DNA from: Escherichia coli
GTDB lineage: Bacteria; Pseudomonadota; Gammaproteobacteria; Enterobacterales; Enterobacteriaceae
DNA: 64,000 nt
Assembly (NCBI RefSeq): GCF_041248615.1
Contig: NZ_CP158426.1
Reading direction: 5' to 3' (one strand)
Under the pieces are notes generated by a model. It had not been told where the DNA came from and did not search any database. It saw only the letters and a program-made list of their open reading frames with translations. Below, in pieces: positions 52,605-62,951 of this stretch. Both the position numbers and the translations under genes were made by a program. Every line of letters begins with the position of its first letter. The stretch's first letter is position 1.

Positions 52605-54257
52605 TCAGACCAACCAAAGCTTCTTCAATTGCGTTTTCATTTTTTCATGTCTCATTTTCAGTTCAGCCAATCCCCATTCTGAAGAATTACAAACATCTTT
52701 TGTTAAATCAAAAGAGCTTTTACTATTAAGTTTCTCATAAATAGATTTCTTTTTGATAAAATCATAGTGTTGTGCTTCAGAATTTTTGGAACCACTTATG
52801 AGTGTTAAATTACCTATTTTATGCAGCCAGTAGACATGCTCTTGAGGTTGGAATCTATTAATCCAGTATTCATTAACTAATGCTTGAGGAAGAATATGCT
52901 CAATTGTGATTCTCCCCGTATAGGTTTTAATCACGCTCTCATCTTGTTGCTCCATGTCTAAGCGAAGCAAAATTGCTTTTATTAAGTTCACTTGATTCGG
53001 ACGAGGCTCATATAAATCTTCATCCAGAGCAGCTATAAAACCTGAATTATCTGCATGTTGGTTTATCTGATTTATCACAGAATCAAAAGGCATATCATTA
53101 TTTATTGCTACCAGAGCTGAATAACAAACCATTTCTCTTTGGCTTTTAATTTGTTTTTTTAACCACCCATGCATATATACCTTCTCAAAGGCGGTAATAA
53201 ATTGAGAAAAATCATCTAAATTAAAATCTTCTGTACGAGCCATTCGATTCATGAATGCCATAACCGGAGGAATCCACTCATCTACCCCTAAATTACTTAG
53301 CGATGCTATTTTTCGTCGTATTGAAGGGTGTTCAAAATCATTCTCTAAAATCTTAGTATAATTTTTTGCAGAATTAACCAACATCAGTGACATAGCAATA
53401 GCATCTCCATCAAATTGCTGCTGGAGATTTTCAATAAAAGCTTCAAAACCTTTTTGTAATACCCTGTCACGATCTTTTTTCTCGGAAAGCTTATGAAGAG
53501 TAAGAAATTTATCAAGCCGTCTCACTCCAACCATATCTTCAATTTGCGACCATGCTGATTCTATTTGCTCTGATTTTTTATTATGCGTAGAAGCTGATTC
53601 AAACAGTGCATTTTTTAAAAGATCTGCATTACTTAAAGGTAAACCTCGACTATTTAATACATTAAAGAGTCTAAATGATGATGCGAAATCATCAGTTTGC
53701 ACAAATACGATATATACATTTTGCAAAATATATTTAGCAAGCAACTTCAACTCATCAACAGATAACCGCAACAAATAATCTCTAATTGTTTCAGCGTTGC
53801 TAATGAATACTAACTCAGTATCCGATGGCTTTTCAGGTTTATAATCTTTAGAATCCTGCAGTATATAATATTTATAAAGATCATACTCTTTTTTTCTAAC
53901 AATTAGTCTTGGTTCATCAGTTTCATCAGAATAAACATCAATAGGCAGAACTCTTTTTTGCAAATCATCTTTTATCCCCTGAATCGGGATGATTTTTTTT
54001 AGCTCGGAGACAATAATGCTTAACGTTGTAAGACGTTGTTGTCCATCTACAACTTCATACTGATTTTGCCCTTTATTGATACAAATCATACTCCCAATAA
54101 AATATTCATTCTCTTCTGATTGAGAGCTTTTATAAATATCATCAATGAGTTGCTCTGCATTATCTACCGTCCAACTGTAAGGACGCTGATAAGAAGGAAT
54201 AATAAACTTTTTGTTTTCAGTAAGGATATCCTGCACCTTACATTCTTTAGCTTCCAT
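52605..54257 (-). CDS. DUF262 + DUF1524 (GmrSD-family) putative type IV modification-dependent restriction endonuclease, occupying the K-12 mrr slot
   Basis: N-terminal ParB-like DUF262 motifs (IPSYQRPYSW, VVDGQQRLTTL); C-terminal His-Me finger DUF1524 motif (TIEHILPQ...GNLTLISGSKN); AT-rich; first ATG 54257 (track TTG 54278). Confidence 0.7.
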   Translation of the reverse strand: MEAKECKVQDILTENKKFIIPSYQRPYSWTVDNAEQLIDDIYKSSQSEENEYFIGSMICINKGQNQYEVVDGQQRLTTLSIIVSELKKIIPIQGIKDDLQKRVLPIDVYSDETDEPRLIVRKKEYDLYKYYILQDSKDYKPEKPSDTELVFISNAETIRDYLLRLSVDELKLLAKYILQNVYIVFVQTDDFASSFRLFNVLNSRGLPLSNADLLKNALFESASTHNKKSEQIESAWSQIEDMVGVRRLDKFLTLHKLSEKKDRDRVLQKGFEAFIENLQQQFDGDAIAMSLMLVNSAKNYTKILENDFEHPSIRRKIASLSNLGVDEWIPPVMAFMNRMARTEDFNLDDFSQFITAFEKVYMHGWLKKQIKSQREMVCYSALVAINNDMPFDSVINQINQHADNSGFIAALDEDLYEPRPNQVNLIKAILLRLDMEQQDESVIKTYTGRITIEHILPQALVNEYWINRFQPQEHVYWLHKIGNLTLISGSKNSEAQHYDFIKKKSIYEKLNSKSSFDLTKDVCNSSEWGLAELKMRHEKMKTQLKKLWLV

Positions 54258-54534
54258 TTCATATACCCAATCAAACAATCAACAATAACATTATCTTTCT
54301 TGCTCGAAAGAAACGCAACTATAAGATTTTTATATATTTTGTTAGAGTTGATATGGTTCCTGTAACTTCTGTTTATCTGTCTCTGATATGCCCAGATTAA
54401 TTCAAGCAAGATATAACAGAGATATCAATGTGATCTCTGCTACGTACTTTACGTTGAAACACCGCCCTAAATCATAGCCAGGCTATTGATTTTATGTACA
54501 ATCAGAATCGTCCTGATAAAAGCGAGAATACCCC

Positions 54535-56967
54535 ATGGCGGAACTGAACCTAAGTAACCTGACGGAAGCAGACATCATTACCAAATGCGTTATGCCAGCC
54601 ATTCTCAATGCAGGCTGGGACAACACAACGCAAATCAGACAGGAGGTCAAACTCCGGAACGGTAAAGTCATCGTACGTGGTAAAGTTGCGGCACGCAGAA
54701 CGGTAAAATCTGCTGACATCGTGCTGTATCACAAACCAGGCATTCCCTTAGCCGTGATTGAAGCAAAAGCCAACAAACATGAAATCGGCAAAGGGATGCA
54801 ACAGGGCATTGAATATGCGCGCCTGCTGGACGTTCCTTTTGTTTTTGCCACCAACGGTGATGGCTTTATCTTCCGCGACGCCACCGCAGCCGAAGGTGAA
54901 TGCCTTGAAAAGCAAATAACGCTGGATGACTTCCCCTCCCCCGCTGAACTCTGGCAAAAATTCTGCCTCTGGAAAGGATACACACAAGCTCAGCTTCCGG
55001 TGATTACTCAGGACTATTACGACGATGGCAGCGGTAAATCACCACGTTATTACCAGCTTCAGGCAATCAACAAAACCATTGAAGCCGTCTCCAACGGGCA
55101 AAACCGCGTTCTGCTGGTCATGGCGACCGGAACAGGGAAAACCTATACCGCATTCCAGATCATCTGGCGCCTGTGGAAATCAAAAAATAAAAAACGCATT
55201 TTGTTCCTTGCCGATCGCAACATTCTGGTCGACCAAACCAAACATAATGATTTCCAGCCATTTGGTACGGCAATGACCAAAGTCAGCGGACGCACCATTG
55301 ATCCCGCTTATGAAATTCACCTCGCGCTCTATCAGGCTATAACTGGCCCGGAGGAAGACCAAAAAGCGTTTAAACAAGTCGCACCAGATTTCTTCGATCT
55401 GATCGTGATCGACGAATGCCATCGCGGCAGCGCATCCGAAGACAGCGCCTGGCGAGAGATCCTTGATTATTTCAGTTCCTCCACCCAAATTGGCTTAACC
55501 GCCACGCCAAAAGAGACGCATGAAGTCTCCAGCACGGATTACTTCGGCGATCCGGTTTACGTCTACTCACTAAAAGAAGGGATCGAAGACGGCTTCCTCG
55601 CCCCTTATAAAGTTGTCCGTGTTGATATTGATATAGACCTGCAAGGCTGGCGCCCAACCAAAGGGCAAACTGACTTAAACGGCGAAGTGATCGACGATCG
55701 TATCTATAACCAGAAAGATTTCGATCGCACGATGGTAATCGACGAACGCACAGAACTGGTTGCCAGAACCATTACCGACTACCTCAAGCGCACCAACCCG
55801 ATGGATAAAACCATCGTCTTCTGTAACGACATCGATCATGCAGAACGTATGCGCCGCGCCCTGGTTAATCTCAACCCGGAGCAGGTGAAAAAGAACGACA
55901 AATACGTCATGAAAATCACCGGCGATGATGAAATTGGCAAAGCTCAGTTGGATAACTTCATCAACCCGAAAAAACCGTACCCGGTTATCGCGACCACTTC
56001 AGAGCTGATGACCACCGGTGTGGATGCTAAAACCTGCAAACTGGTAGTACTGGACCAGAACATCCAGTCGATGACCAAATTCAAGCAAATTATCGGTCGT
56101 GGTACACGCATCGACGAACGTTACGGCAAACTCTGGTTTACCATCCTCGACTTTAAAAAAGCCACCGAACTGTTTGCCGATGAGCGTTTCGATGGCATTC
56201 CCGAAAAAGTCATGGATACCACGCCAGAGGATATCGCCGACCCAGAATCTGATTTTGAAGAGAAACTCGAAGAAATCAGCGAACATGACGACGAACAGGT
56301 AACAGGCGTTGATGAACCGCCTGCGCCACCATACCAGGTTACCGATACCGATGATGTCGGCCCACTTCCGGAAGAAGACGAGAAGAAAATCCGCAAGTTT
56401 CACGTCAACGGTGTAGCGGTGGGCGTTATTGCGCAGCGTGTTCAGTATTACGATGCCGACGGTAAACTGGTTACCGAATCTTTTAAAGATTACACCCGCA
56501 AAACACTGCTCAAAGAATATGCCTCGCTGGATGACTTTACCCGCAAGTGGCAGGACGCCGATCGCAAAGAAGCGATCATTCACGAGCTGGAACAACAGGG
56601 GATCATCTGGGAAGTACTGGCAGAAGAAGTCGGTAAAGATCTCGACCCGTTCGACATGCTTTGCCACGTAGTGTATGGTCAGCCGCCGTTAACCCGCAAA
56701 GAGCGCGCCGAGAACGTGCGCAAGCGGAACTACTTCACAAAATACTCTGAAGCAGCGCAAGCCGTGCTCGATAATCTGCTGGATAAATACGCCGATGCGG
56801 GCGTACAGGAGATCGAAAGTATTCAGGTGCTGAAACTTAAGCCATTCGACAGCATGGGCACCTTACCGGAGATTATTAAAACCGGATTTGGCGACCGTAA
56901 CGGGTATAATCAGGCGCTCAGCGAGCTGGAAAACGAAATCTACCAATTACCGCCCCGCTCTGCTTAA
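54535..56967 (+). CDS. hsdR: type I restriction enzyme R subunit (810 aa, type IB/EcoAI-like size class)
   Basis: SF2 helicase motifs (MATGTGKT Walker A, DECHRGSA); length fits the type IB class, not the 1170-aa EcoKI HsdR. Confidence 0.9.
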
Positions 56968-56981
56968 CAACTCTCTTTTGC

Positions 56982-57020
56982 GCCTTCTGCAACCATCATG
57001 TTGCAGAAGGCCTTGTTTTT
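56982..57020 (+). terminator. perfect 11-12-bp hairpin plus T-run in the hsdR-hsdM spacer
   Basis: GCCTTCTGCAA (56982..56992) pairs with TTGCAGAAGGC (57001..57011), then CTTGTTTTT. Confidence 0.5.
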
Positions 57021-57033
57021 CATGGAATACAAC

Positions 57034-58503
57034 ATGTCTATCAGCTCAGTAATCAAATCATTACAAGATATTATGCGCAAAGATGCCGGTGTGGACGGCG
57101 ATGCGCAGCGTCTCGGTCAGCTCTCCTGGCTGCTGTTTTTGAAAATCTTCGATGCCCAGGAAGAGGCGCTGGAACTGGAGCAGGATAACTATCAATATCC
57201 GATCCCACAGCGTTATTTATGGCGCAGTTGGGCCGCAAACGCTCAGGGCATTACCGGTGATTCCCTGCTGGAATTCGTTAATGATGATCTGTTCCCGGCG
57301 TTGAAAAACCTCACTGCGCCTATCGATAAAAACCCACGCGGCTACGTGGTAAAGCAGGCGTTCAGCGATGCCTATAACTACATGAAAAACGGTACGCTAC
57401 TGCGTCAGGTGATCAACAAGCTGAACGAAATTGACTTTACCAGCGCCAGCGAACGGCATCTGTTTGGTGATATTTACGAGCAGATCCTTAAAGATCTGCA
57501 ATCTGCGGGCAATGCGGGCGAATTCTATACTCCACGCGCCGTCACTCGCTTTATGGTGGATCGCGTTGATCCGAAACTCGGCGAATCCATTATGGACCCG
57601 GCCTGCGGTACGGGCGGTTTTCTTGCCTGCGCATTTGATCATGTAAAGAACAAATACGTGAAGAGCGTCGCCGATCATCAGACGCTGCAACAACAGATCC
57701 ACGGTGTTGAGAAAAAACAGCTTCCGCACCTGCTGGCGACCACCAATATGCTGCTACACGGCATTGAAGTGCCAGTGCAAATTCGTCACGACAACACTCT
57801 GAACAAACCGCTTTCCTCCTGGGATGAGCAACTGGATGTCATTGTTACCAACCCGCCGTTTGGTGGCACGGAAGAAGACGGTATTGAGAAGAACTTTCCA
57901 GCAGAGATGCAAACCCGCGAAACGGCGGATTTGTTCCTGCAACTGATTGTGGAAGTACTGGCGAAAAATGGTCGCGCGGCGGTGGTATTGCCGGATGGCA
58001 CACTATTTGGCGAAGGCGTTAAAACCAAAATCAAAAAGCTACTTACCGAAGAGTGCAACCTGCATACCATCGTGCGCTTACCGAATGGTGTGTTTAACCC
58101 CTATACCGGCATTAAAACCAACCTGTTGTTCTTTACCAAAGGTCAGCCAACCAAAGAGATTTGGTTCTATGAGCATCCGTATCCGGCGGGCGTGAAAAAT
58201 TACAGTAAAACTAAGCCGATGAAGTTTGAAGAGTTTCAGGCGGAGATTGACTGGTGGGGTAACGAGGCCGATGGTTTTGCCAGCCGCGTCGAGAATGAGC
58301 AGGCGTGGAAAGTCAGCATTGATGACGTGATTGCGCGCAACTTCAATCTGGATATTAAAAACCCACATCAGGCGGAAACCGTTAGCCATGATCCGGACGA
58401 ACTGTTAGCGCAGTATGCAAAACAGCAGGCGGAGATCCAGACGCTGCGTAATCAACTGCGCGATATTCTTGGCGCTGCGCTGTCTGGCAAGGAGGTTAAC
58501 TAA
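57034..58503 (+). CDS. hsdM: type I N6-adenine DNA methyltransferase M subunit (489 aa from ATG 57034)
   Basis: SAM motif I (DPACGTGGFL) and motif IV (NPPFG); stop overlaps hsdS start (TAATG). Confidence 0.9.
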   Translation: MSISSVIKSLQDIMRKDAGVDGDAQRLGQLSWLLFLKIFDAQEEALELEQDNYQYPIPQRYLWRSWAANAQGITGDSLLEFVNDDLFPALKNLTAPIDKNPRGYVVKQAFSDAYNYMKNGTLLRQVINKLNEIDFTSASERHLFGDIYEQILKDLQSAGNAGEFYTPRAVTRFMVDRVDPKLGESIMDPACGTGGFLACAFDHVKNKYVKSVADHQTLQQQIHGVEKKQLPHLLATTNMLLHGIEVPVQIRHDNTLNKPLSSWDEQLDVIVTNPPFGGTEEDGIEKNFPAEMQTRETADLFLQLIVEVLAKNGRAAVVLPDGTLFGEGVKTKIKKLLTEECNLHTIVRLPNGVFNPYTGIKTNLLFFTKGQPTKEIWFYEHPYPAGVKNYSKTKPMKFEEFQAEIDWWGNEADGFASRVENEQAWKVSIDDVIARNFNLDIKNPHQAETVSHDPDELLAQYAKQQAEIQTLRNQLRDILGAALSGKEVN

Positions 58504-60248
58504 TGAGTGTGGAAAAGCTGATCGTTGATCATATGGAAACCTGGACCTCGGCGTTGCAAACCCGTTCCACCGCCGGGCGCGGCAGTTCCGGAAAAATTGA
58601 TTTATATGGCATTAAGAAATTACGTGAGCTGATTCTGGAACTGGCTGTGCGCGGTAAACTGGTGCCGCAGGACCCGAACGATGAACCGGCGTCGGAGCTG
58701 CTGAAGCGTATTGCGGCAGAAAAAGCAGAGCTGGTGAAGCAAGGTAAAATTAAAAAGCAAAAACCACTGCCGGAAATTAGTGAGGAAGAGAAGCCGTTTG
58801 AATTGCCGGAGGGATGGGAGTGGGTGCGTATTAGTGAAATTGGACATGACTGGGGACAAAAAACTCCAGATAAAGATTTTACTTACATTGATGTTGGTTC
58901 AATAAATAAAGAATATGGAATTATTGAAGAGCCATCTATTCTTTCAGCGAAAGATGCCCCATCGCGAGCGAGAAAAATTGTTCAGCAAGGGACTATCATA
59001 TACTCTACTGTTCGCCCGTATTTGTTAAATATAGCTATTATTGAAAACGAAATACTACCTGAACCGATCGCTAGTACTGCCTTCGCTATTATTCATCCAT
59101 ATACGGCGATGGATGCTAATTTCATTTATTATTATCTACGTTCTCCGGTATTTGTTTGTTATGTTGAAAATTGTCAGACAGGGGTTGCCTATCCAGCAAT
59201 CAATGACAAACAATTTTTTTCTGGAATAACTCCAGTTCCTCCATCCTTGGAACAAGTTCGCATCGCAAACAAAATCAAAGAATTAATGTCCCTCTGCGAC
59301 CAACTGGAACAGCAATCCCTGACCAGTCTGGACGCACATCAACAACTGGTTGAAACCCTGTTGGGAACGCTGACTGACAGCCAAAACGCCGAGGAACTGG
59401 CTGAAAACTGGACGCGTATTAGCGAGCATTTCGACACACTATTTACCACCGAAGCCAGCGTGGATGCGCTAAAACAGACCATTCTGCAACTGGCGGTAAT
59501 GGGTAAACTTGTGCCGCAGGATCCGAATGACGAACCTGCCTCTGAACTGCTCAAACGAATTGCGCAGGAAAAAGCACAACTGGTGAAAGACGGGAAAATA
59601 AAAAAACAAAAACCGTTGCCGCCGATTAGCGATGAGGAAAAACCGTTTGAACTGCCGGATGGGTGGGAGTGGTGTCGTATCGTTGATTTAGCAATTGTAG
59701 GTACAGGCGCAACACCTTCTCGTGATGAGCCCAACTATTGGAAAAATGGAGTAATTAATTGGGTGACAAGTGGAGAAACTTGCTTACCTTTTATTCAAAA
59801 CACCACCGAACATATTACCCAAAAGGCTGTTGATGAAACAAATGTTTCAATCTATCCACCAGGAACTCTTATTATTGCAATGTATGGACAAGGAAAAACA
59901 AGAGGGCAAATCACAGAGTTATTAATAAGTGCTGGAACAAACCAAGCATGCGCAGCCATTCGATTAATCGAAACGGATAATGAGCATCGTAAATTTATAA
60001 AACTTTTTTTTGAAAAGTCTTATGATGATTTACGTAGTTTAGCCGCTGGAGGTGCACAGCCAAATCTAAATGTAGCAAAAATATCACAAACTGTTATACC
60101 ATTGCCCCCTAAAAGAGAACAAAATCGGATCGTTTCTATTGTGGGGGAGTTATTAATTTATTGCGATAAATTACGCAAAAATATCCAGACCGCCCAACAA
60201 ACCCAACTGCACCTTGCAGATGCACTAACTGACGCGGCGATAAACTAA
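58503..60248 (+). CDS. hsdS: type I specificity subunit HsdS (581 aa) with two conserved repeats flanking AT-rich target-recognition domains
   Basis: GKLVPQDPNDEPASELLKRIA...KQKPLP...EEKPFELP(E/D)GWEW repeated at about residues 45-110 and 330-395; AGGAGG SD. Confidence 0.9.
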   Translation: MSVEKLIVDHMETWTSALQTRSTAGRGSSGKIDLYGIKKLRELILELAVRGKLVPQDPNDEPASELLKRIAAEKAELVKQGKIKKQKPLPEISEEEKPFELPEGWEWVRISEIGHDWGQKTPDKDFTYIDVGSINKEYGIIEEPSILSAKDAPSRARKIVQQGTIIYSTVRPYLLNIAIIENEILPEPIASTAFAIIHPYTAMDANFIYYYLRSPVFVCYVENCQTGVAYPAINDKQFFSGITPVPPSLEQVRIANKIKELMSLCDQLEQQSLTSLDAHQQLVETLLGTLTDSQNAEELAENWTRISEHFDTLFTTEASVDALKQTILQLAVMGKLVPQDPNDEPASELLKRIAQEKAQLVKDGKIKKQKPLPPISDEEKPFELPDGWEWCRIVDLAIVGTGATPSRDEPNYWKNGVINWVTSGETCLPFIQNTTEHITQKAVDETNVSIYPPGTLIIAMYGQGKTRGQITELLISAGTNQACAAIRLIETDNEHRKFIKLFFEKSYDDLRSLAAGGAQPNLNVAKISQTVIPLPPKREQNRIVSIVGELLIYCDKLRKNIQTAQQTQLHLADALTDAAIN

Positions 60249-60374
60249 TTTTCTCGCCCTCAAAAAAACCAATAAAGCGGCTCAATAGCCGCTTTATTAA
60301 CATCACCAAAAATTATATTTCACGCTAATTTTCATCTTATTTTCATTAATTTTTAGCTGGACTTTCCCTGTATT

Positions 60375-60396: not shown

Positions 60397-60473
60397 TTAG
60401 CGCGGTGCGGATGTGCGCCAACACACCCACACCGCTCATCACAATCCCTATTTCACGAGAATAGTAATCATGA
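60397..60473 (-). ncRNA. symR: SymR antisense sRNA (approximate position, inferred from symE)
   Basis: in K-12 the ~77-nt SymR is encoded antisense over the symE 5' UTR and start codon; coordinates are by analogy, not read from a conserved sequence. Confidence 0.3.
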
Positions 60474-60811
60474 CTGACACGCATTCTATTGCACAACCGT
60501 TCGAAGCAGAAGTCTCCCCGGCAAATAACCGTCAATTAACCGTGAGTTATGCGAGCCGCTACCCGGATTACAGCCGTATTCCCGCCATCACCCTGAAAGG
60601 TCAGTGGCTGGAAGCTGCCGGTTTTGCCACCGGCACGGCGGTAGATGTCAAAGTGATGGAAGGCTGTATTGTCCTCACCGCCCAACCACCCGCCGCCGAA
60701 GAGAGCGAGCTAATGCAGTCGCTGCGCCAGGTGTGCAAGCTGTCGGCGCGTAAACAAAAGCAGGTGCGGGAATTTATTGGGGTGATTGCGGGTAAACAGA
60801 AAGTCGCCTGA
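60470..60811 (+). CDS. symE: SOS-induced toxin SymE (113 aa, AbrB-fold endoribonuclease-like)
   Basis: [47 protein letters not shown]... matches recalled K-12 SymE. Confidence 0.9.
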
Positions 60812-60857: not shown

Positions 60858-62951
60858 TTATACCAACGCGTTCTCCATCTGTTTTTCAAATGCCTGACGA
60901 ATTAATCCCATAATGTAAGGAAGTTGTGCGAGGTCGCTGAAACCAATTTCCACATCACCATTGCCCCAGCGCCCAACATTTGTCACATCTTTGGCAATAC
61001 CTTTCGGATCGACCAGTTCATGAAACTGCATATTAAGCGACAATCGCAGTCGGCTTTTTTGCGGCACAACATCAACAAAATTCGTTTCAGCTTTAAACGC
61101 AATATATAGCTTCAATACTTCCTGCGTGATCCCTGCGTCCAGGCGCATAACTTCATCGCGAAGATGATCGAATAACACTCGGCTATGCGAACCATCAGCA
61201 AGAAAAGGAAAATCATTCAGGCTGTAACTGGTTTTGTTTTCAGGCTGCCCCCGATAAACAGCTAAAACCTCTTCAGGAAGAGCAGGCGCTTGCCAAACCT
61301 GAACCGCAAGCTCCGCCAGACGATCGGCACGGGCATGAATGGCGGCTTCATCCCATTTTTCGCACTGTCCAAGACCGATATTCAAATAGAGCGGGCTATG
61401 TTTAAAGCCGTCTTCAATATCGCGTTTTTCCGCGAAAGGTCTGTCACTGTAGCGGGAGTTATAGCGCGTTAAAGTGAGATTCCCCAACGTATGTAACAGT
61501 TCTTTATGCACACGCTGCCAGTCGCTTCCCAGCTCTTCACGCCATTTAGCCGACAGATTTTCGTTCTGCGGCATAATATGCTCAATCGTAAACTCTTCCA
61601 CGCGCTCTCTGCGTTTATCGTTTTCCAGTCGTCGTAACCAGTAGCTGCGACTACGGAAGTTATAGAGATCGCGAACTTTTAATTCCCGTTTAAATTCATC
61701 ATCGTTGGGGAAACGACGATATGAAGGCAGATTCAGAAAATGTACCTGAATACTTTCCAGATATTTTTCTTTAATAATGACCTTATAAAAGGTAGCAAAC
61801 GTCTTGTTAAGAGAATTTGTCGGAATCGCACATACTGCACGGCGGAAAACATAAGATTCAATTAAACGAATTATGCTCAGGAAATCTTCGTGAGGCAAAT
61901 CGCCATTTTTATAGTCATGATAAAGCGCCAGTAAGAAAGGATACGCCACATCGACCTTTAACTCGCGCAAATCCTGAAAAGCCGTAGCAAGCGATTTGTC
62001 ACTTTCTTTACCCAATGCCATTGCACAGTAATACTCCGCGTAGATGTGAATATCTTCAACCAGGCGATCTACGCCTTTTTCAGCAACACTCTGGCTGCGG
62101 GCATGGAGTTTAAATGCCTCATAGACTTCATCTGTCCGAGGGATCTCCCCCGTTTTTACCGTCAGATAATGACGCATAAAACTGTCAAAATATTCGCTGT
62201 AACCTTGCTGACCAAAAGCGACTTCCATGGGTCGCCAGTGATCTTCATACAACCGGGTTTGATGCTCTGGTTCGAGGCCCATCAGAATAAAATTGCGCAC
62301 CAGATCGGCCTGACTTAACGCCTTACCGGTAGAGTTCATACTTTCAAAAATCAGTTGCGGATTATCCTGACCACGATTAAGCGCCACATCGACAATTAAT
62401 AATTTTGCTAACCCACGACATAAGGGAATCAAGTCATCCCCGAGTTTGGCAATTTGTTCATCAAAGAAAGTAAAGTTTTCCATTATTCGATGGGAATAGT
62501 TTTCTGGCATTGGTCTTTGTTTTATTAACGCCAGCAAACTGTCTTTATCAGTCTCGGTCAGCAGTAATTTAAATCCTTTCTCGCCGGACTCATAAGGATT
62601 GAGTAAATAATAATTACGCAATTTCATTGCTGAAAAGCCATCAAAAACTTCGTCTTCGCCAAGATGACGCGATAAAGCCTCAATCAGCAACATTGCGGTC
62701 GTCAGCCTTTGTTGACCATCAATGACCAGTAACGGAGAAATACCAGAAACCTGATACAACCCCTGCTCAATATAAACAACCGAACCGATAAAATGCGCTG
62801 ATATATCGTCACGCTTTCCGGCACGAATGATGTCGTCCCAAAGTTGCCGACATTGTTGTTCTGTCCATGAATAAGTCCGTTGATAAATGGGAATAACAAA
62901 CTGCTGCGAACGTTTTAAAAAATCGAGTAGGCGGGCTTCTGTAGCTTTCAT
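60858..62951 (-). CDS. second DUF262 + DUF1524 (GmrSD-family) putative type IV restriction endonuclease, occupying the K-12 mcrBC slot
   Basis: 697 aa; N-terminal IPIYQRTYSW and VIDGQQRLTTA (DUF262); C-terminal FTIEHIMPQN...GNLTLTRYN (DUF1524). Confidence 0.7.
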   Translation of the reverse strand: MKATEARLLDFLKRSQQFVIPIYQRTYSWTEQQCRQLWDDIIRAGKRDDISAHFIGSVVYIEQGLYQVSGISPLLVIDGQQRLTTAMLLIEALSRHLGEDEVFDGFSAMKLRNYYLLNPYESGEKGFKLLLTETDKDSLLALIKQRPMPENYSHRIMENFTFFDEQIAKLGDDLIPLCRGLAKLLIVDVALNRGQDNPQLIFESMNSTGKALSQADLVRNFILMGLEPEHQTRLYEDHWRPMEVAFGQQGYSEYFDSFMRHYLTVKTGEIPRTDEVYEAFKLHARSQSVAEKGVDRLVEDIHIYAEYYCAMALGKESDKSLATAFQDLRELKVDVAYPFLLALYHDYKNGDLPHEDFLSIIRLIESYVFRRAVCAIPTNSLNKTFATFYKVIIKEKYLESIQVHFLNLPSYRRFPNDDEFKRELKVRDLYNFRSRSYWLRRLENDKRRERVEEFTIEHIMPQNENLSAKWREELGSDWQRVHKELLHTLGNLTLTRYNSRYSDRPFAEKRDIEDGFKHSPLYLNIGLGQCEKWDEAAIHARADRLAELAVQVWQAPALPEEVLAVYRGQPENKTSYSLNDFPFLADGSHSRVLFDHLRDEVMRLDAGITQEVLKLYIAFKAETNFVDVVPQKSRLRLSLNMQFHELVDPKGIAKDVTNVGRWGNGDVEIGFSDLAQLPYIMGLIRQAFEKQMENALV

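Follow-up and report, generated by a model that had tools for sequence, protein, structure and literature searches.

In type I specificity subunits (HsdS), each target-recognition domain (TRD) recognises one half-site of a bipartite target, with helices fixing the spacing between the half-sites. A preliminary description of a 64,000-nt stretch of Escherichia coli DNA (contig NZ_CP158426.1; hereafter the window) had noted an hsdS gene in which two conserved repeats flank AT-rich TRDs. It had read this layout as one that permits TRD swapping by homologous recombination, and had suggested that the TRDs came from a different donor than the framework around them. The locus raises the questions of what maintains the repeat, whether the repeat itself is the substrate for exchange, and where the AT-rich domains come from.

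A putative type IB specificity gene

The identity of the gene as hsdS is borne out by its domain content, its structural relatives and its neighbours. Methylase_S (PF01420) is found in two stretches of the product (E 2.6e-27), and its PDB sequence matches are 3OKG, 5YBB and 1YF2 (E ~1e-35 to 1e-37). Immediately upstream, on the same strand, lie hsdR and hsdM (Table 1), the hsdM stop and the hsdS ATG sharing one nucleotide (TAATG). The hsdR product matches the Pfam families ResIII, EcoEI_R_C (E 6e-37) and HSDR_N, and the RefSeq product name of an identical gene is 'EcoAI/FtnUII family type I restriction enzyme subunit R'. The hsdM product matches N6_Mtase (E 8.6e-94) and HsdM_N; its start lies at 56998 by longest open reading frame and at 57034 in RefSeq (489 aa).

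Type IB systems were originally defined by subunit complementation and antibody cross-reaction with EcoAI, and by a 9-bp separation of the methylated adenines (PMC3874165, PMC2481252). Their S subunits have the domain order D2-S1-D1-S2 (PMC3874165) and, as a criterion for the family, a direct amino-acid repeat beginning near residue 50 and residue 325 (PMC2481252); their HsdM is shorter and their HsdS longer than in families IA and IC (PMC3510504). Here, HsdS has 581 aa versus 464 aa in EcoKI, HsdM has 489-501 aa versus 529 aa, and the conserved regions of HsdS are extra-long (N-terminal, 110 aa; central, ~130-145 aa). Together, the EcoEI_R_C domain of HsdR, the two Methylase_S stretches, the subunit lengths and the repeat positions point to type IB. 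[quoted passage not shown] Its architecture is the published hallmark of type IB HsdS and was already known (PMC2481252, PMC3874165, PMC3510504).

Table 1. Features of the hsd locus, in positions of the window
Feature	Positions	Strand	Description
hsdR	54535..56967	+	810 aa; type IB (EcoAI/EcoEI family) restriction subunit, by ORF and Pfam
hsdM	56998..58503	+	N6-adenine methyltransferase subunit, by ORF and Pfam
Tract common to E. coli O157:H7	58402..59371	+	970 nt, 1 mismatch
hsdS	58503-60248	+	581 aa; ATG start; specificity subunit; domain order D2-S1-D1-S2
N-terminal conserved region	58503..58832	+	aa 1-110; 95-100% nt identity to 10 other E. coli alleles
Repeat copy 1	58632..58831	+	aa 44-110: ILELAVRGKLVPQDPNDEPASELLKRIAAEKAELVKQGKIKKQKPLPEISEEEKPFELPEGWEWVRI
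Variable module 1	58833..59291	+	TRD1 and first ~13 residues of central helix; GC 0.36, GC3 0.24
Central conserved region	59292..59681	+	aa 264-393; GC3 ~0.52
Repeat copy 2	59481..59680	+	aa 327-393
Variable module 2	59682..60189	+	TRD2 and first ~27 residues of C-terminal helix; GC 0.36, GC3 0.22
C-terminal conserved tail	60190..60248	+	AQQTQLHLADALTDAAIN; GC 0.54; kept in all alleles

The direct repeat and the domains it flanks

A repeat search of the hsdS region returned two ungapped 200-nt copies with 78% identity, and blastn of one half of the gene against the other found the same pair (E 4e-44). These copies lie within 5 nt of the coordinates first reported (58636-58830 and 59485-59680). 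In 100 codon-shuffled versions of hsdS, the best 200-nt self-match averaged 40% and reached at most 43.5%; the observed identity also lies above the 60 percent that the preliminary description had set as its lower limit. Because the copies are spaced 849 nt, or 283 codons, apart, they are in frame, and the near-identical peptide of about 65 residues attributed to both was recovered, with 59 of 71 residues matching between aa 40-110 and aa 323-393.

Composition follows the domain map. GC and GC3 are 0.51 and 0.56 in the N-terminal conserved region, 0.37 and 0.23 in TRD1, 0.49 and 0.52 in the central conserved region, 0.37 and 0.20 in TRD2, 0.32 and 0.28 in the first 25 aa of the C-terminal helix, and 0.54 and 0.52 in the last 21 aa of HsdS; for comparison, GC3 is 0.56-0.59 in hsdR and hsdM. 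Composition is thus not uniform across the gene, and the segments between and after the repeats are AT-rich, as had been described (TRD GC3 0.20-0.23 versus 0.52-0.56 in the framework). Second codon positions show no decrease (GC2 0.40-0.43 in the TRDs versus 0.33-0.37); the drop therefore lies at synonymous and first positions, and amino-acid composition does not account for it. Conservation among alleles is likewise partitioned: variable module 1 has ~37-40% nucleotide identity to alleles with other TRD1s and 99.8% to O157:H7, and the central conserved region has 94-95% identity to nine of the 10 other alleles, the exception being 027_SK3 (77%).

We also compared the copies in a predicted structure. 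The AlphaFold model of HsdS has a mean pLDDT of 84.8 (shallow alignment, 20 sequences), and every one of its top Foldseek matches in the PDB is an HsdS chain (E 4e-23 to 3e-9), the best being 3OKG, 5YBB, 1YF2 and 2Y7C. Two long helices are modelled, a central coiled-coil helix (aa 248-291) and a second at aa 537-580. Copy 1 comprises the end of a helix (35-49), a loop, a helix (63-79), an extended linker and a strand (106-109) that forms the first beta-strand of TRD1; copy 2 runs through the matching succession of helix (317-332), loop, helix (346-362), linker and strand (389-392). The model thus predicts an HsdS fold with the two copies at equivalent positions.

These features indicate that HsdS is an internally duplicated 'half-S', each half being made up of a conserved helical module, a TRD and a long coiled-coil helix. 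As the type IB N-terminus precedes the first conserved module (D2-S1-D1-S2), the module ahead of TRD1 recurs ahead of TRD2, and this is the 65-70-aa repeat. Selection on the protein, rather than homogenisation of the DNA, appears to maintain it, presumably because the pseudo-symmetric halves contact two HsdM subunits alike. It has also been proposed that the type IB insert derives from the C-terminal tail of IA/IC HsdM (PMC3510504). In a single pairwise BLASTP comparison of the 71-aa repeat with EcoKI HsdM, we found no match to the C-terminal tail, the best match being residues 50-56 (E 0.05), and this one comparison therefore lends such an origin no support.

Recombination between the copies or between alleles

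If the repeat itself were the substrate, TRDs would be reshuffled, lost or duplicated by unequal crossing-over or gene conversion involving its two copies. Changes in central-repeat length in the type IC systems EcoR124I/II are known to alter spacing, the repeat here is real, direct and in frame, and one natural allele (027_SK3, L011) is without the second copy. However, the copies are only 78% identical and their longest stretch of uninterrupted identity is 11 nt, short of the roughly 20-30 bp that RecA-dependent recombination requires in E. coli. Of the 53 nucleotide differences between the copies, 13 are at first, 6 at second and 34 at third codon positions, and the codon differences comprise 27 synonymous and 12 non-synonymous changes. 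Synonymous sites are saturated: synonymous codon identity is 54%, versus 47% expected (P = 0.14). DNA identity (75% over 213 nt) does not exceed what peptide conservation alone predicts (72 +/- 2%), and with the saturation this argues against recent conversion. Moreover, across E. coli, Dickeya and Buttiauxella, copy 1 resembles copy 1 (nucleotide identity 0.86-0.89) and copy 2 resembles copy 2 (0.83-0.88) more than copy 1 resembles copy 2 (0.76-0.83), indicating that each copy is separately orthologous across genera. Nor is the L011 allele a deletion between the copies: copy 1, TRD1 and the central helix remain, and unrelated sequence replaces everything after 'GKL'. The short exact run, the saturation and the separate orthology largely refute recombination between the repeats, which we consider extremely unlikely.

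A phase-variable shufflon was also rejected. The sole inverted repeat in the 2-kb hsdS region is a weak 15-nt pair, 87% complementary, with arms 1,260 nt apart; no other hsdS lies nearby, and the annotation of the flanks, ~9 kb on either side, includes no recombinase gene.

The evidence instead favours exchange between alleles. TRDs are visibly reassorted among 11 E. coli alleles, and the allele in the window shares with O157:H7 a tract that takes in the hsdM 3' end, the N-terminal conserved region and TRD1, and reaches ~80 nt into the central region. Against O157:H7 strain FRIK2533, we counted 9 mismatches in 58194-58401, 1 in 58402-59371 and 17 in 59372-59660, so that the tract is flanked by sequence that is 4-6% diverged. 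One end of the tract falls in the 3' end of hsdM and the other in the unrepeated portion of the central region, so that neither lies in a repeat. The proposal that the layout serves TRD exchange by homologous recombination is therefore supported, by the reassortment and by the tract, with one amendment: exchange appears to rely on the close match of each conserved region to its counterpart in other alleles (94-100% identity), not on that of one repeat to the other. RecA-type recombination between alleles within conserved stretches, the hsdM end included, would move whole TRD modules, since the framework is 94-100% identical between alleles and the TRDs are unalignable, and the moved modules would create new specificities. 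The present allele combines the TRD1 module of O157:H7/O55:H7 with a TRD2 module seldom found in E. coli. Among 5426 complete E. coli genomes, the framework is present in 978, TRD1 (at least 99% identity) in 319 and TRD2 in 5, three of which are strain ST2747. Carriers of the present allele include ST2747 (CP007392-4), LT599825 and OW967178. The central region adjoining TRD2 carries private variants, ~5% diverged from all 10 other alleles. Downstream of hsdS, identity to the sampled alleles is 94.5-97% throughout; none of them is a near-identical partner there, and no 3' crossover of the TRD2 module could be placed.

Origin of the AT-rich TRDs

Part of the suggestion of a different donor stands, in that the TRDs have a history distinct from that of the framework. 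The donor itself was not found, and AT-richness is not peculiar to the present sequence: every TRD of the 10 other E. coli type IB alleles has a GC of 0.31-0.37 and a GC3 of 0.18-0.30. The contrast with the framework recurs in Pectobacterium, Dickeya and Buttiauxella, where TRD GC3 is again about 0.2-0.3, and is weaker in Endozoicomonas and in a Pseudomonas metagenome-assembled genome (MAG), where TRDs have 0.49 GC versus 0.53 in the N-terminal and 0.60 in the central framework (fetched locus ~59% GC). As every sampled IB TRD is AT-rich, composition cannot name a donor. A search for a TRD2 donor in 100,044 species, with one genome per species, returned no near-identical sequence; the best matches, 65-68% identical, come from other Enterobacterales, where they too sit within the IB framework, and relatives at 35-60% identity occur across many phyla. 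More broadly, the nearest relatives outside E. coli are 65-79% identical at the protein level, and the same TRD1 and TRD2 pair, at 67-79% amino-acid identity, is found in Enterobacter, Proteus, Morganella, Pantoea, Dickeya and Vibrio.

Recent import of both TRDs from one identifiable low-GC species would fit their low GC3 relative to the framework, the scarcity of TRD2 in E. coli and the private divergence beside it, which suggests import of that segment. Yet TRDs are equally AT-rich in all sampled IB systems, including those of Pectobacterium, Dickeya and Buttiauxella, so composition is no marker of a recent event here; in addition, no TRD2 relative in the species collection exceeds 65-68% identity, and the exact HsdS protein occurs on 690 contigs, which marks it as an established allele. 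We regard such an import as quite improbable. Alternatively, low GC might arise in place, if TRDs are fast modules under diversifying selection that drift to an AT-biased mutational equilibrium. The restriction of the GC drop to synonymous and first codon positions agrees with this, as does a contrast that appears in every host and scales with host GC, as in the Pseudomonas MAG. However, the near-identity of TRD1 in 319 genomes and the persistence of the TRD pair across genera indicate that individual TRDs are conserved and not drifting fast, and related TRDs across phyla favour a mobile pool. We consider in-place drift unlikely as the explanation. A mobile pool and in-place drift are not mutually exclusive.

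We favour a pool of AT-rich cassettes, common to Gammaproteobacteria, to which these TRD modules would belong. The combined account, of a type IB hsdS with a half-S duplication, a repeat selected at the protein level, inter-allelic TRD exchange and an AT-rich cassette pool, is very probably correct. That the uniform AT-richness has a systematic cause, either a cross-genus pool whose cassettes turn over faster than they ameliorate or selection for AT, is a more tentative idea and, on present evidence, an unlikely one; such selection may involve H-NS-type silencing or the avoidance of recombination with the framework.

Relation to characterised systems

Three characterised type IB enzymes of E. 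coli recognise GAG N7 GTCA (EcoAI), GAG N7 ATGC (EcoEI) and GGA N8 ATGC (EcoAO83I). The present system resembles these enzymes in its operon, its chromosomal region next to symE, its HsdR C-terminal domain and its long D2-S1-D1-S2 HsdS with a direct repeat beginning around residues 50 and 325 (PMC2481252, PMC3874165). In contrast, both TRDs, and with them the specificity, are expected to differ, on the indirect ground that the O157 TRD1, which is also the TRD1 here, is only 30% identical to that of EcoAO83I (PMC2481252). The putative O157:H7 type IB S subunit is listed as S.EcoO157ORF5947P / S.EcoKO157ORF5307P with no site given (PMC2481252). In nucleotides, its N-terminal conserved region and TRD1 match ours fully or at 99.8%, but its TRD2 is unrelated (37% nucleotide identity over aligned codons) and the 300 nt of central region adjoining TRD2 differ by 5-6%. 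No type I methylation motif of O157:H7 was found in the literature searched, and the PDB relatives (3OKG/5YBB for TRD1, 1YF2 for TRD2) yielded no recognition sequence.

Because TRD1 is common to both, we predict from the sequence that this allele has one half-site in common with the O157:H7/O55:H7 system and a different second half-site. If so, DNA moving between this lineage and O157:H7/O55:H7 would be partially cross-protected.

In StySQ/StySJ (type IA) and StySKI/EcoAI (type IB) hybrids, the crossover lies in the central conserved region (PMC3874165). The present allele similarly joins the N-terminal TRD of one allele to the C-terminal TRD of another through the conserved region, where one end of the mapped tract lies, but it is natural, whereas those hybrids were laboratory-made or selected. 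Phase-variable type I systems (SpnD39III, hsdS 'epigenetic invertons') also alter methylation specificity by TRD shuffling, but do so with inverted repeats, silent hsdS copies and a site-specific recombinase in one genome (PMC4190663, PMC7672463), unlike the single hsdS here. The locus has little discovery value in itself, as it re-finds the type IB hallmark and the classical mechanism of type I diversification; it nevertheless provides a clear case, from nature, of a TRD-cassette exchange whose tract has been mapped.

The hsdS repeat is a hallmark of type IB specificity subunits

The preliminary description had reported a nearly identical peptide encoded twice within hsdS. We find an ungapped direct repeat of 200 nt at 58632-58831 (copy 1) and 59481-59680 (copy 2), with 78% identity, above the floor of about 60 percent set beforehand. 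The copies are spaced 849 nt (283 codons) apart and therefore lie in the same frame; between aa 40-110 and aa 323-393, 59 of 71 residues are identical. A blastn comparison of the two gene halves recovered the same pair (E 4e-44), and the best 200-nt self-match in codon shuffles of hsdS had a mean of 40% and a maximum of 43.5% (n=100).

This repeat is a published hallmark of type IB (EcoAI family) HsdS, in which the domain order is D2-S1-D1-S2 (PMC3874165) and a shorter HsdM accompanies a longer HsdS with "extra long conserved regions" (PMC3510504). The repeat starts in the window, aa 44-51 and aa 327-334, agree with the published positions, near residues 50 and 325 (PMC2481252). Compared with EcoKI, HsdS is longer (581 versus 464 aa) and HsdM shorter (489-501 versus 529 aa). 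In an AlphaFold model of HsdS (pLDDT 84.8, pTM 0.69, from a shallow alignment of 20 sequences), whose top PDB fold matches are without exception HsdS chains, each copy begins at the end of a short helix; a loop, a helix of 17 residues and then an extended linker follow, and the copy closes at the first beta-strand of the next target-recognition domain (TRD). One BLASTP comparison with EcoKI HsdM, made to test the published proposal that the type IB insert derives from a C-terminal tail of HsdM, was negative. The gene is an ordinary type IB hsdS of a kind already described; the preliminary observation was accurate, and its interpretation was right in outline but needs two corrections, to the route of domain swapping and to the origin of the domains.

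Features of the hsd region and of HsdS (window coordinates unless marked aa)
Feature	Position	Strand	GC3	Remarks
GmrSD-family ORF	52605-54278	-		557 aa; DUF262 + DUF1524/HNH
hsdR	54535-56967		0.56	ResIII, HSDR_N, EcoEI_R_C domains
hsdM	56998-58503		0.59	N6_Mtase, HsdM_N domains
hsdS	58503-60248	+		581 aa; two Methylase_S stretches
N-terminal conserved region			0.56
TRD1			0.23
Central conserved region			0.52
TRD2			0.20
C-terminal helix, first 25 aa			0.28
Last 21 aa of HsdS			0.52
Variable module 1	58833-59291			TRD1 + start of following helix
Variable module 2	59682-60189			TRD2 + start of following helix
Short helix whose end opens the repeat	aa 35-49 (copy 1), 317-332 (copy 2)			AlphaFold model
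17-residue helix in the repeat	aa 63-79 (copy 1), 346-362 (copy 2)			AlphaFold model
First beta-strand of following TRD	aa 106-109 (copy 1), 389-392 (copy 2)			AlphaFold model
Long coiled-coil helices	aa 248-291, 537-580			AlphaFold model
SymR antitoxin RNA (symR)	60399-60475	-		Rfam RF01809, 88 bits; antisense to symE 5' end
symE	60413-60811	+		Pfam SymE_toxin; directly 3' of hsdS, as in K-12
GmrSD-family ORF	60858-62951	-		697 aa; DUF262 + DUF1524/HNH, plus DUF5655

Domain exchange proceeds through homology between alleles

The repeat-flanked architecture had been described as permitting TRD swapping by homologous recombination. Of the 53 nucleotide differences between the copies, 13 are at first, 6 at second and 34 at third codon positions. 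The same codon is used at 32 of 59 same-residue positions (54%, versus 47% expected from codon usage; P = 0.14), and nucleotide identity is 75%, versus 72 +/- 2% after independent back-translation of both peptides. RecA requires about 20-30 bp of homology. The longest exact run shared by the copies is 11 nt, making them poor substrates for recombining with each other, and with codon sharing and DNA identity this near the peptide-only expectation, these comparisons give no sign of gene conversion between them. Copy-specific signatures (AAEKAELVKQ...PEISE in copy 1, (A/E)QEKAQLVK(D/E)...PP(I/V)SD in copy 2) are common to E. coli, Dickeya and Buttiauxella. With a divergent Pectobacterium copy 1 left out, between-genus nucleotide identity is 0.86-0.89 for copy 1 and 0.83-0.88 for copy 2, and lower, 0.76-0.83, between copies 1 and 2. 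The repeat is old, and it is conserved as protein rather than as DNA.

The swapping itself stands. We compared the window hsdS with ten other E. coli alleles, whose frameworks are 94-100% identical to it except for the central region of 027_SK3 (77%), while TRD modules are unalignable between alleles (about 37-40% over aligned codons). The modules are reassorted: the window allele shares its TRD1 with O157 but not its TRD2, pOHT76-1_1 combines the TRD1 of KKo003 with the TRD2 of O157, and 2014C-3338 the TRD1 of 17-07187 with the TRD2 of 74-2/AUSMDU; 74-2 and 027_SK3 have a common TRD1. Against O157:H7 FRIK2533, the 970 nt at 58402-59371 contain one mismatch, compared with 9 in 58194-58401 and 17 in 59372-59660, several of the latter private to the window allele among the 11. 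The segment 58402-59371 is a recombination tract bearing the TRD1 module, and it is bounded within the 3' end of hsdM on one side and, on the other, within the part of the central conserved region that lies outside the repeat. Domain swapping is thus real and uses homology between alleles, rather than the two repeats.

The type IB framework is present in 978 of 5,426 complete E. coli genomes, the window TRD1 at >=99% identity in 319 (mostly O157:H7/O55:H7), and the window TRD2 in 5, three of these being strain ST2747. No type I motif for O157:H7 was found in the literature searched.

Some compared loci depart from this organization. The 542-aa type IB allele of 027_SK3 (locus L011, 1801-3429) is without copy 2: after 'LAVMGKL', unrelated AT-rich sequence runs straight into a different TRD2, present at >=99% in 15/5426 E. 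coli genomes. This suggests a possibly dispensable second copy of the type IB insert, or a cassette from another type I family. In E. coli CUPS TF 6/1_01 (L009, 1501-4028), an IS1 insertion splits hsdS into two pseudogene fragments. A normally chromosomal hsdM-hsdS-symE-GmrSD block is annotated on the 373-kb 'plasmid' pOHT76-1_1 (L012, 32-4203), the sole plasmid place among 983; a chromid, integration of the segment or an assembly artefact could account for this.

AT-rich recognition domains are a family-wide property

As described, the TRDs are more AT-rich than the framework (GC3 0.20-0.23 versus 0.52-0.56), and composition along the gene is strongly bimodal rather than uniform. Because the TRDs show no drop in GC2, the signal is synonymous and does not stem from amino-acid composition. 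The GC shifts coincide with the edges of the variable modules, which reach past the globular TRDs and take in 13-27 residues at the start of the next helix.

From this contrast, a different donor for the two domains had been suggested. In all ten other E. coli alleles, every TRD lies between 0.31 and 0.37 in GC and between 0.18 and 0.30 in GC3, compared with about 0.5-0.6 for framework GC3, and the contrast recurs in Pectobacterium, Dickeya and Buttiauxella, being weaker in Endozoicomonas and a Pseudomonas MAG. The history of the TRDs therefore differs from that of the framework, but this holds across the family and is not peculiar to one allele; for the window allele, no donor could be identified among 100,044 species representatives. 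There, the nearest TRD2 relatives (65-68% identical) belong to other Enterobacterales with the same type IB framework, and more distant ones (35-60%) are spread across many phyla. Proteins with this TRD1+TRD2 pair are found in Enterobacter, Proteus, Morganella, Pantoea, Dickeya and Vibrio at 67-79% whole-protein identity, and the exact window HsdS protein is on 690 contigs. In some type IB alleles, including protein P0058 and locus L013 (Pectobacterium sp. CFBP8739, 1819-3564), a TRD2-like domain (…GTG(A/S)TPSR…AMYGQGKTRGQ…) occupies both positions, which would predict a near-palindromic target.

The operon lies in the immigration control region

The locus is the E. coli immigration control region with a type IB system, an arrangement already described (PMC2481252, PMC12707154). 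E. coli ST2747 (CP007394) carries an identical hsdS, and its R subunit is named "EcoAI/FtnUII family" by RefSeq. At 58501-58505 (TAATG), the hsdS ATG and the hsdM stop share one base, an overlap tied to translational coupling in EcoKI (PMC3510504). Just 3' of the hsdS stop, a hairpin with a 15-bp stem (60268-60301), preceded by an A-run and, read on the minus strand, followed by a T-run, looks like a terminator between hsdS and symR/symE and may be bidirectional.

GmrSD-family ORFs bracket the operon on both sides. In the interval corresponding to 60858-62951, RefSeq annotates a 1164-nt GmrSD CDS in ST2747 and the other sampled genomes, followed in ST2747, the sole locus fetched that far, by a DUF262 pseudogene; the window's intact 697-aa ORF may thus be an undisrupted version or a fusion. 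On the upstream side of the operon, the annotation of ST2747 shows hypothetical proteins in place of the 557-aa ORF.
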